Positions 1 to 9,979 are shown, counted from the stretch's first letter. The stretch: 9,979 nucleotides of DNA from a virus (IMGVR_UViG_2671180338_000008:1-9979), one strand, 5' to 3'. Numbers and translations are program-made. Notes: a model not told the origin generated them from the letters alone.

Positions 1-414
1 CGTAAGTAAAATCAGCCACCCACAGCTGGTCAGGACGTTCTGCCACGAACTGACGGTTTACGCGGTCACCTGCGGCAACGGTTTTCCGGCTGACGGTAGT
101 GCGGACCTTTTTACCCCGGAGAACACCGACAAGTCCCATAACCGCCATGAGGCGCGCCACTGTACATCTGGCCACCCTGATTCCTTCCCGTAACAACTGG
201 CGCCAGACTTTACGCACACCGTACACCTGATGATTTTCATCGTATACGCGCTGTATCTCTCTCTTCAGCCAGTCATCGTGCTGCGCACGGGCACTGCGTT
301 TATCAGGATGATGTCCTGTTGCTAACAGTGGTAATACGTTGACGGGGCAATATGCAGTTCACTGCATACCGGTCCGACCCCGTACTGCCCACGCAGCTTA
401 TCCAGCAGTGGCAT
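1..414 (-). pseudogene. IS629-like transposase OrfB, partial (runs off window) and disrupted
   Basis: ATG at 412-414 overlaps the orfA stop (TAATG). Reads MPLLDKLRGQYGVGPVCSELHIAPSTYYHC then an in-frame TAG at 322-324 (CAG Gln expected). A 1-nt frame change near 316-318 precedes the conserved frame resuming as GHHPDKRSARAQHDDWLKREIQRVYDENHQVYG... Confidence 0.6.
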
Positions 415-739
415 TATTTTTTCCAGAGGCGGTCGAACTCCGCCTTCGCAAAATAAGCGGAAGCCTGGCGAAGGATATCGTTACTGCGGCGCAGTTCACG
501 ATTTTCACGCTCCAGCTCTTTCAGACGCTGACGTTCAGCGGTGGTGAGCCCTCCATCACCGCCCCCGGTATCCCGCTCATGCTGGCGAACCCAGACACGC
601 AGAGTCTCCGGTGTACAGCCAATCTTTGGAGTAATGGAACAAATTACCGCCCATTGTGAGTCATATTCGCCCTGACTTTCCAGAACCATACGGACTGCCC
701 GTTGACGGACTTCGGGGGAAAACGAGTATTTTTAGTCAT
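414..739 (-). pseudogene. IS629-like transposase OrfA, frameshifted after codon 7
   Basis: ATG at 737-739 with GAGG about 9 nt upstream. The conserved OrfA frame (ORF 414-689, starting MVLESQ...) is +1 relative to this ATG after a T4C5 homopolymer run (plus-strand G5 714-718, A4 719-722). From the ATG the frame reads [15 protein letters not shown]... and terminates early. The intact element is remembered as having one more T in this run. Confidence 0.6.
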
Positions 740-768
740 CCTGTTTACCTCTTTCTCAGGGAGTTTAG

Positions 769-793
769 TCTCCAGGATTCCCGGGGCGGTTCA
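769..793 (-). repeat. Left terminal inverted repeat of the IS629-like element (approximate extent)
   Basis: Element-strand sequence TGAACCGCCCCGGGAATCCTGGAGA... begins at 793. Followed by a GAGG Shine-Dalgarno and the orfA ATG at 737-739. The exact IR length is not determinable without the right end. Confidence 0.6.
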
Positions 794-1696
794 TTATCTA
801 AAAAAGCTGAAAGCCTTAGCTCAGGAAAAATTACGATTGGAACAAAAGAAAAAGTAATCATTATTAATGAGTTAAGGCAATGTCATCCATTATCACAATT
901 ACTGGTTATCGCGGATTTGCCACGTAGTACATTTTACTATCACGTGAAACGCCTTAATGCGCCAGATCCATATCAACTTGTTAAACAAGTAATATTGAGA
1001 ATATACCATCAGCATAAAGGGCGTTATGGTTATCGACGCATCAGACTTGCCTGCCGTAACGAGGGCATTTTACTTAATGGTAAAACCATCAGAAAGTTAA
1101 TGAAGGAACTGGGTATCAGCTCACTTATCAGGCGCAAGAAGTACCGTGCCTATCGTGGAGAACAGGGGCGAACTTGTAATAATTTACTGAAGAGACAATT
1201 TTATGCTGACCGCCCAAATCAAAAGTGGGTAACAGATGTCACAGAGTTTAAGGTCGATGGCAGGAAGCTCTATTTATCACCAATCATGGACCTGTATAAT
1301 GGAGAAATAGTCTCATATAACCTTACTGAGCGCCCATTAGCATCAATGGTAAAGAGCATGCTATTAGATGCGGTAGAACAACTCAATAAAGACGATAAGC
1401 CCTTGTTGCATAGTGATCAGGGGTGGCAATATCAGATGCCTCGTTGGCAACGTTGGTTGAGTGATAATGGCATAACACAAAGCATGTCCCGACGTGGTAA
1501 CTGCTTAGATAATGCAGCAATGGAAAGCTTTTTTAGTACTTTAAAATAAGAATGTTACTACCTAAATAAATACAATAAGTTACATCATCTAAAGCAAGAT
1601 ATAATTGATTACATTGAATACTACAATCACCATCGCATTAAAGAGAAACTCGATGGCATGAGTCCGGTTCAATATCGACTTAAACATTTTTCATAG
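794..1696 (+). pseudogene. IS150-like transposase OrfB (integrase core) with an in-frame TAA
   Basis: Single frame through the conserved transposase core, interrupted by TAA at 1547-1549 (FFSTLK*ECYYLNKY...), after which the same frame continues to the natural stop TAG at 1694-1696 (...HHRIKEKLDGMSPVQYRLKHFS). No own start is present in the window. Confidence 0.7.
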
Positions 1697-1723
1697 GATG
1701 TCCAAGATTTGGGGCGCAGATCA
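794..1723 (+). mobile_element. IS3-family (IS150-group-like) insertion sequence remnant, 5' end displaced by the IS629-like insertion
   Basis: Starts exactly at the IS629-like terminus. 795-857 encodes an OrfA C-terminal leucine-zipper tail (YLKKLKALAQEKLRLEQKKK*) containing an A AAA AAG slippery motif. It is followed by an OrfB with DDE-transposase hallmarks (RSTFYYHVKRL, GRYGYRRI, LHSDQGWQYQ, SMSRRGNCLDNAAMESFF, MSPVQYR). The putative right terminus GTCCAAGATTTGGGGCGCAGATCA at 1700-1723 ends in CA; this IR assignment is tentative. About 40% GC, distinct from the phage module. Confidence 0.7.
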
Positions 1724-1787
1724 TTTGAAAAGGTGGGCACCTACGTTACCAATACTGGCTTAATGGCTACATACGGCAGTCGGTTTA

Positions 1788-1829
1788 CGCTTACCTCCGT
1801 TAACGCTTACCTCCGTTAACGCTTACCTT
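1788..1829. repeat. 16-bp tandem direct repeat, about 2.6 copies (CGCTTACCTCCGTTAA)
   Basis: Read directly: CGCTTACCTCCGTTAA at 1788-1803 and 1804-1819, then CGCTTACCTT at 1820-1829. Lies in the unassigned segment downstream of the IS150-like end. Confidence 0.8.
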
Positions 1830-1973
1830 TAATCTGCTGAATTTCGAATTGTTCAGGAGTAATAGTCCAAAGTATCGGGAATTTTCCAGACAATCCTGAT
1901 AATACGCTTATGAACATTACAACACGCTCATGCGGAACCTGGATGGGGGAAGGAACGGTGAAGCTGTTAGCGA

Positions 1974-2003
1974 ATGACCGGCGTTTGTATAAACGCCGGT
2001 CAT
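1974..2003. repeat. Perfect 13-bp-arm inverted repeat with a 4-nt loop (ATGACCGGCGTTT GTAT AAACGCCGGTCAT)
   Basis: Read directly. No U-tract follows on either strand, so it is not a canonical intrinsic terminator. It sits about 50 nt downstream of the stop of the minus-strand 96-codon ORF. Confidence 0.8.
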
Positions 2004-2053
2004 GATGAATGATATTTCAGAATATACCTCGGGCTAAAATACCGGGACAGAGA

Positions 2054-2344
2054 TCAGGCGTGATTAATCTGCAGCATTTTTAATAACAGAAGTACTGAGC
2101 TTACTTTACCTTTGATGATGTAATAGTTATTTCCGTCGGTACTCATTTTTCCCTGAAATAATGTCACGGATGTTTCTTCCTGCTGATCCTGCAGGCGCAG
2201 TCGTAAGGTCATATTTTTAATGAGCTGAGATCCGGGTGGCAAGGGGTATTTGCTGTCAGATACTGGGCGACTGAGTCTGATGTGGCGCGTATACAGCCCG
2301 TTTTCGTACAGGGTGGCCTCTGTTATGGTGTCAGTGACCAGCAT
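2054..2344 (-). CDS. Hypothetical protein (96 aa), possibly a 5'-truncated gene remnant abutting IS1
   Basis: ORF MLVTDTITEATLYENGLYTRHIRL...LKMLQINHA. Its ATG (2342-2344) lies 3 bp from the IS1 end and in the same frame as insB, 6 codons after the insB stop. No recognisable family and no clear Shine-Dalgarno. Confidence 0.3.
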   Translation of the reverse strand: MLVTDTITEATLYENGLYTRHIRLSRPVSDSKYPLPPGSQLIKNMTLRLRLQDQQEETSVTLFQGKMSTDGNNYYIIKGKVSSVLLLLKMLQINHA

Positions 2345-2362
2345 GTGGGTAATGACTCCAAC

Positions 2363-2866
2363 TTATTGATAGTGTTTTATGTTCAGATAATGCCCGATGA
2401 CTTTGTCATGCAGCTCCACCGATTTTGAGAACGACAGCGACTTCCGTCCCAGCCGTGCCAGGTGCTGCCTCAGATTCAGGTTATGCCGCTCAATTCGCTG
2501 CGTATATCGCTTGCTGATTACGTGCAGCTTTCCCTTCAGGCGGGATTCATACAGCGGCCAGCCATCCGTCATCCATATCACCACGTCAAAGGGTGACAGC
2601 AGGCTCATAAGACGCCCCAGCGTCGCCATAGTGCGTTCACCGAATACGTGCGCAACAACCGTCTTCCGGAGACTGTCATACGCGTAAAACAGCCAGCGCT
2701 GGCGCGATTTAGCCCCGACATAGCCCCACTGTTCGTCCATTTCCGCGCAGACGATGACGTCACTGCCCGGCTGTATGCGCGAGGTTACCGACTGCGGCCT
2801 GAGTTTTTTAAGTGACGTAAAATCGTGTTGAGGCCAACGCCCATAATGCGTGCAGTTGCCCGGCAT
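2363..2866 (-). CDS. insB: IS1 InsB reading frame (expressed as the InsAB' fusion by programmed -1 frameshifting)
   Basis: 167-aa translation [27 protein letters not shown]...[15 protein letters not shown]. Stop TAA at 2363-2365 lies inside the terminal repeat. Confidence 0.9.
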
Positions 2867-3060
2867 CCAACGCCATTCATGGCCATATCAATGATTTTCT
2901 GGTGCGTACCGGGTTGAGAAGCGGTGTAAGTGAACTGCAGTTGCCATGTTTTACGGCAGTGAGAGCAGAGATAGCGCTGATGTCCGGCAGTGCTTTTGCC
3001 GTTACGCACCACCCCGTCAGTAGCTGAACAGGAGGGACAGCTGATAGAAACAGAAGCCAC
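2785..3060 (-). CDS. insA: IS1 InsA (transposition repressor / N-terminal part of the InsAB' transposase)
   Basis: 91-aa translation [43 protein letters not shown]...LKNSGRSR starting at GTG 3058-3060; zinc-finger CxxC...CxxC motif. Confidence 0.9.
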
Positions 3061-3130
3061 TGGAGCACCTCAAAAACACCATCATACACTAAATCAGTAA
3101 GTTGGCAGCATCACCTCATTCGTCTGTTCC

Positions 3131-3637
3131 TTAAATCTTCCAGGAAATTTCTGCATTGCCGTCAGCATCACCGGCACCTGTGAATTCAGCGTTGGTCAGC
3201 ACCACGTTTTTGCCACTGACTGACGTGGACATGAATCCACCCAGCGGCACTTTGATGGATTCATCAGTGGAGACGACAACGTATACCGGATCGCCTTTTT
3301 TGATAGTGCTGGCATCAAAATCAGAACCGAGATTAACGGTCACGTAGCCACGCTTCATGGCGTCGCCCGGGAAGTTCTTGCCTGTTCCCACCTGGCGAAC
3401 CATGTCCGGCTGCGACGTGGTCGGATAAGGGCGCACGTAGATCCCCTTCACCTTGTCTGCGGTATCACCATCTGCCAGCGGCACGAAAAAACCGTCATCA
3501 TCGTATTTACCAGCCAGGCCATAGGCAGCGAAGGCGTTATCGGATTTAAGGACCACCGGTTCGACGGTTAAGTCCTGCGGGCGAGAGACAGCCCCGGCAA
3601 TGCCAACAGGCATCCGGTACAGAAATACATTATTCAT
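3131..3637 (-). CDS. Phage protein of unknown function (168 aa), last gene of the head module before IS1
   Basis: ATG 3635-3637 with AAGGG about 7 nt upstream, 3 nt after the stop of the upstream gene. Stop TAA 3131-3133 lies only 15 bp from the IS1 terminus. Beta-rich, Gly/Asp/Val-rich composition suggests a structural protein; no family recognised. Confidence 0.5.
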   Translation of the reverse strand: MNNVFLYRMPVGIAGAVSRPQDLTVEPVVLKSDNAFAAYGLAGKYDDDGFFVPLADGDTADKVKGIYVRPYPTTSQPDMVRQVGTGKNFPGDAMKRGYVTVNLGSDFDASTIKKGDPVYVVVSTDESIKVPLGGFMSTSVSGKNVVLTNAEFTGAGDADGNAEISWKI

Positions 3638-3640
3638 TTT

Positions 3641-4861
3641 TTACCCTTTACGGTTTGCCCAGAATTCAGCGTTTTGTTTGTTCAGGGAAGCGATACTGGT
3701 CATGCCCATGTTTAGGCGCTGTGCATCGCCGGTGGTGGCGCGGGTGTTTCGCCCTTTGGCAACCTCAGACACGGCATTAAACGCCATGTCGACCGATTGT
3801 TTCGGTAATTTGCGGATATCCGCATCACCGACTATCTGGCGAACCAGCGTTTTGTCAGCAGAAGCCAGAACCTCGCGTTTGAACGCGGTCGGTTTCATCT
3901 TACGGCTCAGATCGATACCCGGAACGATAACTTCGGCACGCCAGGCTGAGTCACCAGTAATCGTGGTTTCCTCTTCATCGTCCTCGCCGTCACCGGTCGG
4001 ATTATCGTCAGGCTTATTATCGTTATCGCCCGTGGCATTTCTTTCCAGCTTAGCCAGCAGGGCTTTCAGTAATGTTTTGAGGTCATCATCACTGTCGCCG
4101 GTTGGATCTCCGCCCATCTCTGGTGCTTTGTCCGGTAGTGGTTGCTGCGGGGACAGGTTGATGTTGAGATTAACGCCCTGCGGCAAATCCCCCTCATCTC
4201 CTGTAACCGATGCGGGAGCCGACTCCACCAGTTCGTTCATGGTGTCGGCATCTCCTGTCTTGATGGCCGCACGCATGCGGTTCCACCAGTTTTTCTTTTG
4301 ATTTGCCATTGTGTCTCTGTCTCCAATTGCACAACGATTTCCGGCTCTGCCTTTAGGGACAAGAGCCACATGGTTTCCGGTAATATCGACCTGCTCGGCT
4401 TTACCTGGCTCGGTCTGCTCGTACTCCGCGTCATAGCCGCACGACACTTCGCGCAGGCCATCTTCGATAAGCTGAATGGCGCTTTCGTCTTTGACGATAA
4501 GGTCAGCCAGCATCAAATCAGACTGCTCACCCGTCCCGCGCCGGACATTCTGGAGGTGCCCGACAGCAAGCTCTTTCCAGTTCTCGGGATTTACCAGCCG
4601 CACATTCCCGTTTTCATCTTCAGGATGCAGGATCGTGATGCTCATCCCTTCGAATGAGGCAAGCGTGGCCGGATGGAATACCTGCTCAGGAGAACGCGTG
4701 ACGACTATTTCACCGAACTTATCGGGTTTCAGTTTTGGCAGGTCATCAGCACCATAGAGCTGCTTACCTGTTCGTCCTATCGGCACGTCTTTGCACAGCA
4801 ACGAGCCGTCAGCCAGGCGGTATCGGGTTTCCCCGAGCCTGGTCTCAAAAAAGTATTTCAT
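3641..4861 (-). CDS. Phage head-maturation protein: N-terminal DUF2213/XkdF-like putative prohead protease domain with a C-terminal acidic scaffold-like region (406 aa)
   Basis: N-terminal motifs FHPATLASFEGMSITILHPE, REVSCGYD and GNHVALVPKGRAG resemble the DUF2213 family (recalled, not searched). The C-terminal half is acidic and low-complexity (TGDSDDDL, DNDNKPDDNPTGDGEDDEEE) with a coiled-coil-like LKTLLKALLAKLERN. An internal in-frame ATG at 4307-4309 is preceded by GGAGA. Gene starts 3 nt after the Mu-F-like gene stop. Confidence 0.55.
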   Translation of the reverse strand: MKYFFETRLGETRYRLADGSLLCKDVPIGRTGKQLYGADDLPKLKPDKFGEIVVTRSPEQVFHPATLASFEGMSITILHPEDENGNVRLVNPENWKELAVGHLQNVRRGTGEQSDLMLADLIVKDESAIQLIEDGLREVSCGYDAEYEQTEPGKAEQVDITGNHVALVPKGRAGNRCAIGDRDTMANQKKNWWNRMRAAIKTGDADTMNELVESAPASVTGDEGDLPQGVNLNINLSPQQPLPDKAPEMGGDPTGDSDDDLKTLLKALLAKLERNATGDNDNKPDDNPTGDGEDDEEETTITGDSAWRAEVIVPGIDLSRKMKPTAFKREVLASADKTLVRQIVGDADIRKLPKQSVDMAFNAVSEVAKGRNTRATTGDAQRLNMGMTSIASLNKQNAEFWANRKG

Positions 4862-4864
4862 GGG

Positions 4865-5647
4865 TTATGCTGCCCTTTTCATTGCGAATGGAACGCGAAC
4901 AAACACGATCTCTTTATAGCAGCGGCAGTTTGGCAGCTCGCCCGCGTGGCCGGTCATGCCGTCCAAAGTTGGAGGTGAATCCCAGCGGACGAATTTACCT
5001 TTCATGTGATCGTGGGAATCTCGGACATCGCCATCATCGGCTGTACGCCAAATATAACCATCCGAGCCAATAGCTATCGCTCGGGCCATATCCAGCGCGC
5101 CCGTTGCTCTTCCCAGTTCCGTTCGGGCAATCAGATCGGCCCTAGACTTAGCAACATCGCCGGTAGATGCAATCTCTTTAGCAAACTGCTCCGCCCGACC
5201 ACCGGTGACAACAGCCTCTATCGCTTTGTTCTGGATGTCGTACACCCTGTCTGCGGCCTCGAGAGGCAGAGATTTGATGTACTTGACCTGTTCGGCGATG
5301 ATGGATTGCATCACCTGGCCCACAGGAGCGCTTTCCACAAGATTGCGGAGCTCGCGACTGATGTTCTTGCTGTGTTGCCGCCAAACTTTCTCGTTCTGCC
5401 GGGTTAGGTCCGCAGTAAAGTTTTCCGCGACCTTTGTCGCCCAGGGGGTGATGATTTCACTGTAACGCTCCAGCGCCGCAATAATTTCCGTGATACTGTC
5501 ATTTGAACCATCGTAGCGACCATTTACGATGTCTCCGACCGCCCTCGCTATCCTGCGTAGGCTGGTTCGATACCGGATTTCCGCCTGACGGCTCCTGCGG
5601 TTCGTCATCAGGTTCGCCGATGCCGGGCGGCGCTTCATCTTCGGCAT
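4865..5647 (-). CDS. Phage head morphogenesis protein, Mu F / SPP1 gp7-like (260 aa)
   Basis: Motifs typical of the Phage_Mu_F domain: RTELGRATG, DVRDSHDHM, GHAGELPNCRCY. ATG at 5645-5647 with GAGGA 8 nt upstream. The start is uncertain (alternative ATGs at 5636-5638 and 5606-5608), and any of them overlaps the portal 3' end by more than 100 nt. Confidence 0.7.
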   Translation of the reverse strand: MPKMKRRPASANLMTNRRSRQAEIRYRTSLRRIARAVGDIVNGRYDGSNDSITEIIAALERYSEIITPWATKVAENFTADLTRQNEKVWRQHSKNISRELRNLVESAPVGQVMQSIIAEQVKYIKSLPLEAADRVYDIQNKAIEAVVTGGRAEQFAKEIASTGDVAKSRADLIARTELGRATGALDMARAIAIGSDGYIWRTADDGDVRDSHDHMKGKFVRWDSPPTLDGMTGHAGELPNCRCYKEIVFVRVPFAMKRAA

Positions 5648-6965
5648 TCTCGATGTCCTCGTCGGTAATGGATGCCCCGATGCCGGTTACGTCAGAATTT
5701 TCTCGCAAATCAGTCATAGCGGCTTTCAGTGTCATCAGACCATCACCCAGCGCCGTACTGATTGCGTTGGTGGTGTTTAACGCCACCGTTGAGCGATCGA
5801 CATCAGACATTTGCCAGAGCGGGTTAAACTCAAACGTGAAATCGTCCGGCAGCGGCTTGCCAAGTTCCGAACGATGCATGATGTCCAGTATCCGCCGCAC
5901 CGGAAGACGTAAACGCCTCTCCTGCAACGAACTGATGCGATCGTAATAGTTGGCAAGGTCTGCATCACCGGTAGAAAATCCTTTCGGGGACTGTCCGAAC
6001 AACCGCACCAGTGGGATACCAACAGCGCCACTAATCTGTTCTACAAACTGCGAAAGGATGTCATCCAGACCACTGAAGCTGTACTGATGGGTTTCAAACT
6101 TATCCCGCGAGTCCATGAGCGTCATGCCTTCATTACTCTGGAACTGTCGAATCAGGTCGATATTCTTCAGCAACGCTTCATACGCAGGACCACCAAGTGC
6201 GATAAGCTCGCGTAGCTTCTCCACGCTGTAGGTACGCAAATGCGCCTTGTAGACCAGCTGCGCCGCGCCGACAGTAGCGCTGTCGAACGCGGTAAGACGA
6301 TCCCAGATACGCTCTACAACCGACATTCCCCATTCGTTCTCGGTCATCTTCTGCTGAAATGGCAACGTGACGCCATCAAAGCGAATCAGGCGACTGTGAT
6401 GAATGCGCCAGGCAGGAATTCCCGTTGCTGTGGTCACCACATCGTAAAACTCAGGTTTACCCAGGTCCGGCCCCATATCTTTAATGCGGCGGGTCAGTGC
6501 CGGGTCGACCATCCAGCGGTCGAGCGGGAGAATCCCCTTAAACTTGCCCTTACCGATGGTTTCGGGTCGCAGCGGGGTCATTGGTGCCTACCCCTCAATC
6601 ATGATGAAACCCACCGCGCCGCCGTAGAGGCGCGACCATTTCAGCACGTCATTCAGCGCATCCCAGATTTGCAACTCATCCAGTTGTGATTCGAGAATGC
6701 CACGATCTTTTGCATCAATTTCCGAAGTGATGCGAATGCCTTTGCGGGTCATATCATCCGGGATAGCATCGACTGCTTCGCCGATGATCTAGGATGAACG
6801 ATAGGACCATTCCACCAGCATGCGGTTACGACTGGTGAAATTAGCCCGGTAGGTGGATGCTGAGTGCTGGTTAGGTGTCTGCATCCCTACGCGGGCAATA
6901 AAATTCTCATAACCATCAGCTGTGGCCTGCACAGTTCGCCGCAGGGCTTGTTTGTTTCGTGCCAT
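5499..6965 (-). pseudogene. Phage portal protein gene interrupted by two in-frame amber (TAG) codons
   Basis: One continuous frame. ATG 6963-6965 overlaps the large-terminase stop (TGA 6965-6967) by 1 nt. Reads MARNKQALRRTVQATADGYENFIARVGMQTPNQHSASTYRANFTSRNRMLVEWSYRSS, TAG at 6789-6791, IIGEAVDAIPDDMTRKGIRITSEIDAKDRGILESQLDELQIWDALNDVLKWSRLYGGAVGFIMIEG, TAG at 6588-6590, then APMTPLRPETIGKG... for 360 more codons to TGA 5499-5501. Size (~487 codons) and position after the terminase fit a portal. Confidence 0.8.
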
Positions 6966-8368
6966 CAGGCCTGTCTCCCCAGCTGTTCCCAGATATCCAG
7001 CGATGTATCGATTGGCGCGAAGGCCATAATGAATGCATCAGCAACGTTTGGTGACGGTATCTCGCGTTTTGCGAGGTCTTTTTTACTTTCGACCATCACA
7101 CGTCCGTTACGGTCGAAATCACGATGAGGTGTTGTCAGTTCCAGTTTCAGCTTTTCAAGCAACGGACAACGAGAATCTATGCTGATCAGCTCATCCACAG
7201 GATACTGTTCTCCGTTGTTAATGGCGTTAAACGTATTTCTGAAACGGTCAGCCACCAGCCACCATGCCTGAGCCTTAAGATTTGCGAAAAAGTCTTTGTT
7301 GGGGATGCCGTTGTACTCGTCATCTGGCTCATGCACACCAGCACCGGCGTTAAACCTCTGGTAATTCACACGTCGCGCGTATGCGTTCTCGCTCTTCCGG
7401 TCAGCGTTAATTTCAGAGAATTTAGCACCGGCAGACGCACCAACACCGATAGAGTCGTAAACAATATCTGCTTCACGCTCCAGCGCCGCCTGATAAGTAC
7501 GCTGGCAGCTCTTCAGTAATTCATCTTCTTTGGCCTTCCATTCGTCGGCCCAGAAAACAACGGATCCGTGACGGTAAACGTTAGCGCACTTATCTGTACC
7601 ACTGTCAGCCACGTCAAAGCCAATACGCTTTCTTCCACTGGGTTCGAAATTTAACGTTTTGTGCGCATCCACTGCGGCTTCTATCCAAGACAGTTTGATG
7701 ATTGCCGCATCATCATCAGACTCCGGAACGCCCTCATACACATGTTTAAAACCATCCGGATCACGGCGTCGCGCCGCGTCGATAACCTTAAGCATGGTGT
7801 CAGACAGAAACGGATTTTCGTCATAGTTAATTTTGCGGATGAGAGTGCCTTCGGGCGGATCAACAACGAAGTTGCGCCAGACGAAATCAGTAACAAGTCC
7901 GGGGTTGAATATGAACCAGCATTCCGAACCCTCTTTACGGATCGTTGGCTCCAGAATTTTCCACTGGTATTCCGTCAGTGCGTGGGCTTCTTCCAGCCAC
8001 AACACATCGATCCCCTCCAGTGACTTAATTTCTTCGATGTTGCGCCATAATCCATAAAAAACAAATTCCGAGCCAGTAACCCGGTTAATGATTTTGTTGT
8101 TCAGAATACGGAAACGGTGCCGCAGACCAAACCTGTCTATCTGAATTTTGAGCAGGGTATACACCGACTCTTCGATTTTATTCTGGATCTGACGGGCACA
8201 ACAAAAACGCAGGGTGTATTTATTCGACAGAAATATGGCAATGCCAGCGGCATCCCATGATTTTGACGATGACCGACCACCATAAAGCACTTTGTTACGT
8301 GCCCGCATAGTCCAGAAACTACGTAAAGCCGGATTCAGCGTCGGTTTGGATGTCAGAGTAGAAGTCAT
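6965..8368 (-). CDS. Phage terminase large subunit (Terminase_3 / PBSX-type), about 467 aa
   Basis: N-terminal NPALRSFW...ARNKVLYGGRSSSKS (Walker A P-loop), then WLEEAH (Walker B-like) and a C-terminal nuclease-like region. Start chosen at ATG 8366-8368 (MTSTLTSKPTLNPALRSFW...) with GGAGAG 10 nt upstream. The ORF-track start at 8476 is a TTG far upstream and unlikely. Alternative ATGs at 8384-8386 and 8393-8395. Confidence 0.85.
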   Translation of the reverse strand: MTSTLTSKPTLNPALRSFWTMRARNKVLYGGRSSSKSWDAAGIAIFLSNKYTLRFCCARQIQNKIEESVYTLLKIQIDRFGLRHRFRILNNKIINRVTGSEFVFYGLWRNIEEIKSLEGIDVLWLEEAHALTEYQWKILEPTIRKEGSECWFIFNPGLVTDFVWRNFVVDPPEGTLIRKINYDENPFLSDTMLKVIDAARRRDPDGFKHVYEGVPESDDDAAIIKLSWIEAAVDAHKTLNFEPSGRKRIGFDVADSGTDKCANVYRHGSVVFWADEWKAKEDELLKSCQRTYQAALEREADIVYDSIGVGASAGAKFSEINADRKSENAYARRVNYQRFNAGAGVHEPDDEYNGIPNKDFFANLKAQAWWLVADRFRNTFNAINNGEQYPVDELISIDSRCPLLEKLKLELTTPHRDFDRNGRVMVESKKDLAKREIPSPNVADAFIMAFAPIDTSLDIWEQLGRQA

Positions 8369-9083
8369 TGAGGTCACGCTCTCCATTGCCATCATCAATA
8401 CCTGCATCACGGCGAAGACGATCAGCCTCCAGAGACACCTTATCAGTGGCGGCCTTGCGGTAGGCTGTATCAGCAAATATTTTTCCTACCGTCGCAAGCG
8501 TGCCAACGATGGACTCAATACGAACTGTATTGCGCATCATTGCTTTCTCGGCGGCGCTGATATTTTCAATCAGCATCTTCCTTTCCTGGTCCCCATTAGC
8601 ATCTTCCAGCGACACCAACCACCGACCAATATTCTCTGCAGCGACAAGGTTGTTAGCACGAAGGCGAAATAATTCGTCCTCGAGCGTCAACGCTTTAGCG
8701 TCCTCTATCACCTCATCTTTGAGCAGAAGGCGACGGGCATAACCACCGTGTTTTAATGCCTGCTGGTTACCGGGTTGGAATGGGTTAGTCGGGGGATCGG
8801 TACGCATTCCGCGTATCGGTTTCGTATCCGGTGTAGATTCTGTTTTTAGTTGCGTACTTTTTTGTGTAAGGCCAGTAATGGCAGGCTTTCTGCTGGTACG
8901 CACTTTCCTTTTTTGCGTACCATTTTTGCAAACCTGCGTACCGCCACTGCGTGCCCAACCAAGCTTTTTGGCCCTCTTCCTGATAGCCCCTTCTGTAACG
9001 CCGTATTTCTCGCCTATATCACGGAGGCTAAGGACTCCGGCCCGGTATGCCGATTCGATGGCCTCCCAGTCCGGTTTTGCCAT
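8319..9083 (-). CDS. Phage terminase small subunit (254 aa)
   Basis: ATG 9081-9083 with AGGAAG 7 nt upstream. N-terminal HTH-like segment (LSLRDIGEKYGVTEGAIRKRAKKLGW) typical of small terminase DNA-binding domains. Sits immediately upstream of the large terminase; its 3' end overlaps the chosen terL start by 50 nt. Confidence 0.8.
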   Translation of the reverse strand: MAKPDWEAIESAYRAGVLSLRDIGEKYGVTEGAIRKRAKKLGWARSGGTQVCKNGTQKRKVRTSRKPAITGLTQKSTQLKTESTPDTKPIRGMRTDPPTNPFQPGNQQALKHGGYARRLLLKDEVIEDAKALTLEDELFRLRANNLVAAENIGRWLVSLEDANGDQERKMLIENISAAEKAMMRNTVRIESIVGTLATVGKIFADTAYRKAATDKVSLEADRLRRDAGIDDGNGERDLNDFYSDIQTDAESGFT

Positions 9084-9280
9084 GATTATGCTTCCTGTGA
9101 TTTACTGTTATCGCTGCCTGTCACAATAGGTTGCTTTAATTCTTCCTCATCACTCACTCCTGCGACGCTCCGTGGCAGGGCCCCCCACAGGAGTACCTTG
9201 TAAATGTAAGGTGTTTAAGCCTAAATTAAGTCGTATCACGGTTAAATAGCAAAGAAAAATTCACAGAAGGAAAGACATTG

Positions 9281-9790
9281 ATGGAGTGGATAAATGCTTT
9301 GATGAACTATTTTGTACTTCATCCATATCGCCTATGGGGGCTTCTTTTTATAATAGCGTTCACAAAATCCACTTTACTCATTTCGGCGATATTGCCACCA
9401 GCATCAATTATGATGGCCACTGTAATTACAGTCAGCAAGACGACTCTTTCACCATGGGAAGCTGGAATCACGGTCATGAGTGGCGCATGGTGCGGTACTA
9501 TCGTTAATTACCATCTTGGTATAATAATTGGGCATATCCCTCAACTTGCATGTATAATATCAAGCCGTTCCAATACAATAGAACGGGTTCGCCTTCAGTT
9601 GCAAAATAACTCTGTGTCAATACTTTTCACTTCGCGCTTTATCGCCGTGCTGCGTTATATTGCTCCTTTGGTGGCAGGAATGTTGCAACTTCATCCAGTG
9701 AAAGTGTATACAGTGAGTCTGATTTCAGCTGCTAGCTGGTCAGCACTTTATGTTGGTAGTTTTAGCTTCGTGTTGCCTTTTTTTAGCTAA
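9281..9790 (+). CDS. Small inner-membrane protein, DedA/YqaA-like (about 169 aa)
   Basis: Hydrophobic segments throughout; weak resemblance to the COG1238/YqaA family (...GTIVNYHLG..., ...VLRYIAPLVAG...), recalled from memory. ATG at 9281 preceded by AAGGAAAG; the track ORF starts at TTG 9278. About 40% GC, unlike the adjacent phage module. Confidence 0.5.
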   Translation: MEWINALMNYFVLHPYRLWGLLFIIAFTKSTLLISAILPPASIMMATVITVSKTTLSPWEAGITVMSGAWCGTIVNYHLGIIIGHIPQLACIISSRSNTIERVRLQLQNNSVSILFTSRFIAVLRYIAPLVAGMLQLHPVKVYTVSLISAASWSALYVGSFSFVLPFFS

Positions 9791-9878
9791 ACTGCCCATA
9801 AAAAGCTCTTGCGAATCCAGCTTCCCCCATTCCTCTGACAACAGAATCTGATTTGAAGGATAATGAGTAAAATTACCG

Positions 9879-9979
9879 CTACCCCCCAAGGCATTGGATC
9901 CTGATGTACTCCTGAAGCATTCTCAATGCTGTCTGGTCGCTGATGATTCCGTCCCGGATACCGAGAACGTTTCGTCCAG
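9879..9979 (-). CDS. Possible 3' end of a gene entering from beyond the right edge (partial)
   Basis: Minus-strand frame open from the window edge reads ...GRNVLGIRDGIISDQTALRMLQEYIRIQCLGG* with stop TAG at 9879-9881. A second frame is also open through this region, so the assignment is weak. Confidence 0.25.
   Translation of the reverse strand, partial: GRNVLGIRDGIISDQTALRMLQEYIRIQCLGG

Follow-up and report, generated by a model that had tools for sequence, protein, structure and literature searches.

Layers of mobile DNA, probably at different stages of decay, in a stretch matching the Shigella sonnei chromosome

Introduction

The cryptic prophages DLP12, Rac, and Qin of Escherichia coli K-12 are lambdoid-type remnants with truncations associated with insertion sequences (ISs). 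They keep lysis and packaging genes, carry point lesions, and produce no particles, and the prophage remnant described here is like them in these respects. It lies in a stretch of 9,979 nucleotides recorded as viral (IMGVR_UViG_2671180338_000008:1-9979), which is called the window below, always in its full length. The window holds two broken IS3-family elements (one IS629-like and one IS150-like), an intact IS1, and a prophage head and packaging remnant in which the portal gene is a pseudogene. Shigella reference chromosomes carry 229–348 IS insertions, with IS1 making up 42–59% of the insertion sites, and at least 199 pseudogenes (PMC7373316). Among them, Shigella sonnei shows the fastest current diversification (PMC7373316). 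A first-pass annotation of the window had read its nonsense and frameshift lesions as one ongoing burst of pseudogenisation in a host-restricted enterobacterial lineage, with IS1 as a recent arrival and systematic sequence error as the alternative.

The window very probably consists of mobile DNA in three layers that have decayed to different degrees and that arose by ordinary mechanisms on an S. sonnei chromosome. The first layer would be an old IS graveyard of the aerobactin/sat island, in which an IS150-group element was hit by an IS629-like insertion in its orfA. The nonsense codon of the IS150-like orfB would have been inherited from E. coli ancestors, and the IS629-like copy would come from an already defective subfamily with two frameshifts, which is also found beside pic and aggR in enteroaggregative E. 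coli (EAEC). The second layer would be a prophage of lambdoid type. It would have lost the capsid and tail genes at an IS1, after which its useless portal gene gained two amber codons and a missense change on the branch leading to S. sonnei. The third layer would be a young and intact IS1 without a target duplication, which joins the two remnants. The mechanism would combine IS insertion, homologous recombination between IS1 copies, point mutation of dead genes, and drift in a young clonal pathogen. The layout of the window was drawn from six-frame open reading frames (ORFs), direct reading, and database comparisons. Family calls were based on NCBIfam and Pfam matches, on the Rfam ALIL match, and on how near-identical E. 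coli loci are annotated.

Origin of the window

Positions 2348–9979 match S. sonnei 53G (HE616528.1) with 100% identity and 0 mismatches, and positions 1–3115 match S. sonnei island loci adjoining the aerobactin genes iucABCD-iutA with 99.6–99.9% identity. Complete chromosomes that encode a 360-amino-acid fragment of the portal protein include HE616528.1 and CP019689.1, which belong to S. sonnei 53G (lineage II) and to strain 75/02 (lineage IIIc), respectively (PMC5447701). Judged by this near-identity to named genomes on both sides, the window is a stretch of S. sonnei chromosome of the 53G type. The identity with 53G supports the first-pass annotation in its idea of a host-restricted enterobacterial lineage, one that is also laden with ISs, and the picture of such a lineage with expanding IS1 agrees with the published figures for Shigella given above. 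The island sequence adjoins the autotransporter gene sat in E. coli BR1220, JE86, and cM8a, and in cM8a the island is located at tRNA-Sec. The sequence is already present in public genomes, and its biology is known.

Age of the point lesions

Six point lesions were found in the window, namely two frameshifts and one amber codon in the IS629-like element, a TAA codon in the IS150-like orfB, and two amber codons in the portal gene. All six lie at or within one base of the positions first reported, and the reference sequences have sense codons or intact frames there. The losses reported in the IS629-like orfA and orfB are real, and only their exact places needed correction, to the A-run at 719–722 and to the junction between 315 and 316 instead of 316–318. 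The idea of a single ongoing burst of pseudogenisation did not survive the comparison, since three of the six lesions (the TAA codon and both IS629 frameshifts) predate S. sonnei. From their distribution among strains, these three would be older than the species, and they occur in E. coli carrying the sat, pic, or aggR loci. The first-pass interpretation therefore stands for the organism and for IS1 and only in part for the point lesions. It did not list three larger lesions, namely the nested IS629-like element, the sat-island gene truncated by IS1, and the capsid and tail genes that IS1 removed from the prophage.

Systematic sequencing or assembly errors, such as homopolymer miscalls, are a very improbable source of the lesions. 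One lesion does lie in a homopolymer, the A-run at 719–722, and some draft S. sonnei assemblies contain scattered single-base indels in this region that resemble long-read errors. However, five of the six lesions are outside homopolymers. In addition, six complete S. sonnei genomes, independent of one another, and JE86 all have the same shortened A-run, deletion at 315/316, and TAA codon. The three fragments of the broken portal protein (58, 54, and 360 amino acids) are recorded in 2737, 2758, and 2576 assembly blocks, respectively. Because the same broken portal ORFs recur in thousands of blocks and the IS lesions recur in independent complete genomes, sequence error was excluded as the explanation.

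It is also improbable that all six lesions are recent and arose in place through pseudogenisation driven by host restriction. Pseudogene and IS turnover is fast in S. sonnei (PMC7373316), and three of the lesions (both ambers of the portal gene and that of the IS629-like orfB) occur only in S. sonnei or in one of its lineages. In contrast, a goose commensal and EAEC strains also have the TAA codon, and the IS629 frameshifts occur at unrelated sites beside pic and aggR. The affected genes were mobile DNA already disabled through IS insertion or truncation, so host restriction is not needed for their decay. Every lesion target in the window is mobile DNA that was already dead, and such DNA decays in any E. 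coli.

IS629-like element

The IS629-like element is a defective member of the IS3 family on the minus strand. Its 5' 794 bp occupy positions 1–794, with the remainder cut off by the window start, and the last base of the terminal inverted repeat TGAACCGCCCCGGG is at 794. This 794-bp part is 97.5% identical to intact copies in E. coli O145 RM9154 and CFT073, both of which are annotated with a programmed frameshift, and the copy of BR1220 at the same junction is annotated as 'IS3-like element IS629 family'. Both orfA and orfB can be recognized after repair, and the repaired translation matches NCBIfam transpos_IS3 and Pfam HTH_21. The frameshift-stimulating ALIL pseudoknot lies at 343–459 on the minus strand (Rfam RF01497). 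It scores 119.1 bits against a gathering score of 50 over the full length of the model (1–117), which indicates that the RNA signal is still intact.

Alignment with the intact copies places orfA at 414–739 on the minus strand, where it is broken by a −1 frameshift. The window reads G5A4 at 714–722, and the intact copies of O145 RM9154, CFT073, and BR1220 have A5. On the coding strand, T5 has become T4 at codon 7, that is, a loss in a homopolymer at the A-run 719–722. This frameshift is common to all six S. sonnei loci and to the JE86 copy beside aggR on the pAA plasmid. The JE86 pic copy, BR1220, O145, and CFT073 lack it.

The N-terminal part of orfB (1–413, minus strand) carries an amber codon and a 1-nt deletion. 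The amber codon at 322–324 is a C-to-T transition on the coding strand that changed CAG to TAG, as had been supposed, and all references have CAG. Apart from the window, only 53G and CP061367 (two of the six S. sonnei loci) have the TAG, and CAG is kept in four other S. sonnei genomes, including that of 75/02. This amber codon therefore arose within S. sonnei, and it is present in 53G and not in lineage III strains. The −1 frameshift is the loss of a C between 315 and 316 (CAGCGAC to CAG-GAC on the coding strand) without any homopolymer. It is common to all S. sonnei examined and to both JE86 copies (pic and pAA). The part of the element that is present contains two frameshifts and one amber codon in place of an intact transposase, and its rve domain lies beyond the start of the window. 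The copy is a pseudo-element of the IS629-like family and not an active member.

The defective subfamily is located at three unrelated sites, which are the sat-island remnants of S. sonnei, the chromosomal pic locus of the EAEC strain JE86, and the aggR locus on pAA of JE86. This distribution points either to mobilisation of a dead copy in trans or to a spread of the lesions by gene conversion. At positions 488, 504, and 566, the window has the consensus IS629 base, and all other S. sonnei copies examined and the JE86 pAA copy have the variant base. This looks like a short patch of gene conversion (79–222 bp) from another IS629 copy. In BR1220, the IS629-like element at exactly the same junction is 95.7% identical to the window copy and lacks both frameshifts, which suggests that one of the two copies was replaced or converted after a shared insertion.

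Portal pseudogene and prophage remnant

The prophage head and packaging remnant occupies 3116–9979 on the minus strand and is cut by IS1. It matches a complete prophage in E. coli FDAARGOS_944 with 99.88% identity, 8 mismatches, and no gaps. The homology ends at IS1, four bases into the gene of a DUF2184 (major-capsid-like) protein, whereas in FDAARGOS_944 the DUF2184 and tail genes go on leftward. The capsid, connector, and tail genes are absent from the remnant in the window. The nearest isolated phages are vB_EcoM-689R2-like phages (94.5%) and Salmonella phage SEN34.

The portal pseudogene lies at 5499–6965 on the minus strand and belongs to the Phage_portal_3/DUF1073 family (PF06381). After repair, the protein matches PF06381 with 348.1 bits over profile positions 7–355 of 357 and TIGR01555 with 249 bits. 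Its reading frame is interrupted by amber codons at codons 59 and 126. The first replaced W59 (TGG to TAG at 6789–6791) through a G-to-A change, which on the plus strand turned CCAGG into CTAGG at 6790, within a Dcm motif. The Dcm motif is a classical deamination hot spot. The second replaced Q126 (CAG to TAG at 6588–6590) through a C-to-T transition. A third change, A308V at 6043, is a missense change. The prophages of FDAARGOS_943, FDAARGOS_944, and VL40 are 99.85–99.9% identical and encode an intact 488-amino-acid portal (WP_000113499.1), so both ambers separate S. sonnei from the three E. coli prophages.

The polarity of these changes was determined with a 96.7%-identical prophage, PEC148, as the outgroup. 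Across 3116–9085, the S. sonnei branch has only three derived changes, at 6043, 6590, and 6790, and each of them is a G:C-to-A:T change in the portal gene. The changes at 3654, 8087, and 8625 are derived in the E. coli trio. Because the remnant has no capsid or tail partners for assembly, portal decay would be expected to be neutral. The order in which the capsid and tail genes went first and the portal gene decayed afterwards would fit this expectation.

Readthrough of the ambers by a suppressor tRNA or by recoding, so that the portal is still made, is extremely improbable. The three S. sonnei-specific stops are all TAG, and related prophages carry a tRNA cluster. On the other hand, close relatives have sense codons at both portal sites, and TAG is the commonest product of G:C-to-A:T changes at CAG and TGG. 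ARAGORN found only Met, Gly, Thr, Arg, and Val tRNAs and no CUA anticodon in two related prophages, and it found a single tRNA-Met and no CUA anticodon in the 53G locus. With no tRNA of CUA anticodon in these three prophage loci, suppression or recoding was rejected.

The other genes of the remnant have intact frames. On the minus strand, these are the Gp24 cement protein gene (3131–3637), the gene of a DUF2213 protein (3641–4861), and the gene of a Mu F-like head-morphogenesis protein (4865–5608, TIGR01641), and the lengths of these three ORFs are those annotated in FDAARGOS_944 and VL40. Further along the same strand are an intact large terminase gene of the PBSX family (6965–8368; TIGR01547, 142.5 bits) and an intact small-terminase-like ORF (8319–9083), which have the lengths annotated in the E. 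coli relative. A DedA-family membrane protein gene lies on the plus strand at 9278–9790 (WP_011069285.1 in E. coli relatives, with a weak NCBIfam DedA match). It is placed on the opposite strand between packaging and lysis genes, is kept in the E. coli relatives, and looks like cargo carried by the phage. One difference was found in it, a synonymous change at 9562 (TCA vs TCG). The end of a lysis gene is also within the prophage part of the window.

The prophage of FDAARGOS_943 has been damaged independently, by an IS2 in the large terminase gene and an internal stop codon within the head-morphogenesis gene, so prophages of this type decay outside Shigella as well. Beyond the end of the window, in the 53G equivalents of 10079–10837, nine variable sites separate 53G from the E. 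coli prophages in about 760 bp of the lysis region. These differences are denser than those in the head module, which suggests a recombination mosaic.

IS1 and its junction

IS1 lies at 2348–3115 on the minus strand and is 768 bp long. It has terminal repeats, an open insA (2785–3060), an open insB' frame (2363–2866), and an A6C slippery site near 2805–2812, all on the minus strand, and NCBIfam transpos_IS1 matches both ORFs. Several other IS1 copies of S. sonnei match it with 0 mismatches, and one of them has a called InsAB' product of 232 amino acids. The earlier description of this copy as intact was correct. IS1 is a late arrival because it is absent at both window sites in E. coli relatives. 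This absence, together with its identity to copies in the same genomes, supports the recent arrival that had been proposed.

No 9-bp target-site duplication was found around the window IS1, the left flank being cagcatgtg and the right flank tcattcgtc. Other IS1 copies in the same scan have perfect 9-bp duplications. The missing duplication indicates recombination or deletion after insertion and not that the copy is something other than IS1. The left flank is that of the island IS1 of 53G and the right flank is that of the prophage IS1 of 53G, and both of these copies have 0 mismatches to the window IS1. In 53G, the two copies are at about 0.79 and 4.04 Mb, approximately 3.2 Mb apart and in opposite orientation. 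The window is taken as a recombinant or an assembly join because its flanks match these two separate copies. On this flank evidence, the junction would be either the product of IS1 × IS1 recombination (a large inversion) or an assembly join across the repeat. A true inversion would be in keeping with the species, as IS-mediated inversions are very common in Shigella, with 103 of 114 reconstructed inversions placed on Shigella branches (PMC8072062). If real, the inversion would span the replication origin region.

The exact IS1 junction of the window was not found among about 50 S. sonnei contigs. In every genome read, what follows the prophage IS1 is the pgl side, and sat' or iutA comes after the island IS1. 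Shigella contigs joined across IS1 need to be checked with long reads.

Weighing of the proposed history

Several observations weigh against the three-layer history given above. First, the bases at 488, 504, and 566 of the window differ from those of every other S. sonnei copy examined. Second, the junction may be an assembly chimera across the 768-bp repeat, as none like it was seen in the S. sonnei genomes examined. Third, the portal gene has collected slightly more damage than simple neutrality predicts. From the codon content of the six genes, stop codons make up 4.9% of all possible G:C-to-A:T changes, which gives P ~0.007 for at least two stops among three changes and P ~0.04 for all three changes in one gene. 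These P values are post hoc and are given little weight because the window was flagged for these very stops, only three events are involved, and further differences exist in the lysis genes. Five such differences, specific to 53G and unpolarised, lie just past the window. The nonsense excess in the portal gene is treated as a curiosity and is not relied on. For the IS relics, which are dead elements, the question of a chance excess does not arise.

The same excess would be explained if portal loss had been selected, either because of the cost of expression or to evade a host defence that senses the portal. Selection in the S. sonnei ancestor against a costly or defence-triggering portal would account for three S. 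sonnei changes, two of them stops, in one gene. All three polarised changes in the 6-kb head module are in the portal gene, and the six other prophage frames in the window are intact. Nevertheless, a selected loss has little chance of being correct, and so has the narrower claim of selection in the ancestor of S. sonnei. The events number only three, in a window ascertained on stops, and one of the stops is at a known hot-spot motif (CCAGG). A second stop in a dead gene is neutral by definition, and other 53G-specific differences are found in the neighbouring lysis genes. In addition, with the capsid and tail genes gone, no part of the module is under selection. Neutral decay of a prophage that had already lost its head and tail therefore remains the preferred reading of the portal changes.

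IS150-like element and neighbouring island sequence

The 3' 948 bp of an IS3-family element of the IS150 group lie at 795–1742 on the plus strand, and the left part of about 500 bp is separated from them by the IS629-like insertion. The IS629-like element is nested in the IS150-like orfA at 794/795, and BR1220 has the same junction. The tail of orfA ends at 857, and orfB (856–1695) follows on the same strand with an in-frame TAA at 1547–1549. An intact copy of 1451 bp in TUM9803, with 43-nt inverted repeats and an annotated programmed frameshift, is 99% identical to this 3' part. The TAA is a C-to-A transversion (TCA to TAA). The TUM9803 copy has TCA (Ser) at this codon, and the InsB of K-12 IS150 also has Ser. 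The TAA is also present in E. coli BR1220 (from a goose), JE86, and cM8a.

The repaired OrfB is 56% identical to K-12 IS150 InsB, compared with 27% to IS629 OrfB. It matches NCBIfam transpos_IS3 with 332.9 bits and Pfam HTH_21, rve, rve_2, and rve_3. The nearest named element among the matches listed is ISEcB1 (64.5%), and the PGAP label is only 'IS3 family'. With orfA split and a stop in orfB, the copy is not a complete element.

By its inverted repeats, the right end of the element is at about 1742, yet the homology with TUM9803 runs to 1785. About 43 bp of homology (window 1743–1785) therefore lie past the inverted repeat of the TUM9803 copy. Either the true end of the element is further out, or a repeated target is preferred. 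The spacer that follows (1743–2053) holds a 16-bp tandem repeat of 2.9 copies at 1783–1828 (TRF score 85), beside the end of the IS150-like element, and its copy number varies among strains. Compared with the window, the repeat is 16 bases shorter in BR1220 and cM8a, 32 bases shorter in JE86 and 53G, and equal in CP032523 (S. sonnei). In several S. sonnei genomes, including that of the lineage IIIc strain 75/02, an extra IS3-family element of about 1.25 kb is inserted at window position ~1745–1747. This element is absent from the window, 53G, CP061367, and CP032523.

A 3' remnant of a sat-adjacent hypothetical gene lies next to IS1 at 2054–2347 on the minus strand, with 96 codons from an internal ATG. 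Its 5' half was removed by IS1. The intact gene is 582 nt long, encodes 193 amino acids (WP_000291745.1), and stands beside sat in BR1220, JE86, and cM8a. The 96-amino-acid fragment is recorded in 1010 assembly blocks and is located beside iucABCD-iutA in S. sonnei genomes.

Comparison with known systems

The window can be described as a stack of old IS scars that were inherited, together with some young mutations in a prophage remnant without capsid genes and structural damage done by an active IS1. Broken genes that are clustered in one window need not result from one process, and the value of this result is chiefly for annotation.

Compared with IS629/IS1203-type IS3 elements of E. coli and Shigella, the window copy is alike in its terminal repeat, its orfA/orfB layout, and its ALIL pseudoknot. 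It differs in belonging to a defective subfamily with two fixed frameshifts and in carrying an extra amber codon. In 53G, the 3' end of the IS629-like copy is also cut by another IS1, which is outside the window. The IS150-like element shares the IS3-family layout with K-12 IS150, as well as 56% OrfB identity and the conserved Ser at the TAA codon. It is distant from IS150 in DNA, with no IS150-labelled match among the matches listed.

The prophage differs from the K-12 cryptic prophages in its head module, which has a PBSX-family terminase, a Phage_portal_3 portal, and a Gp24 cement protein. With the described degradation of Shigella genomes (Hawkey et al. 2020, PMC7373316; Seferbekova et al. 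2021, PMC8072062), the window has in common the organism, a dominant and active IS1, IS-truncated genes, IS-mediated rearrangement, and nonsense and frameshift pseudogenes. However, those studies concern host genes, for example metabolic ones, whereas the broken genes of the window are all mobile DNA, and half of its point lesions were inherited from E. coli ancestors.

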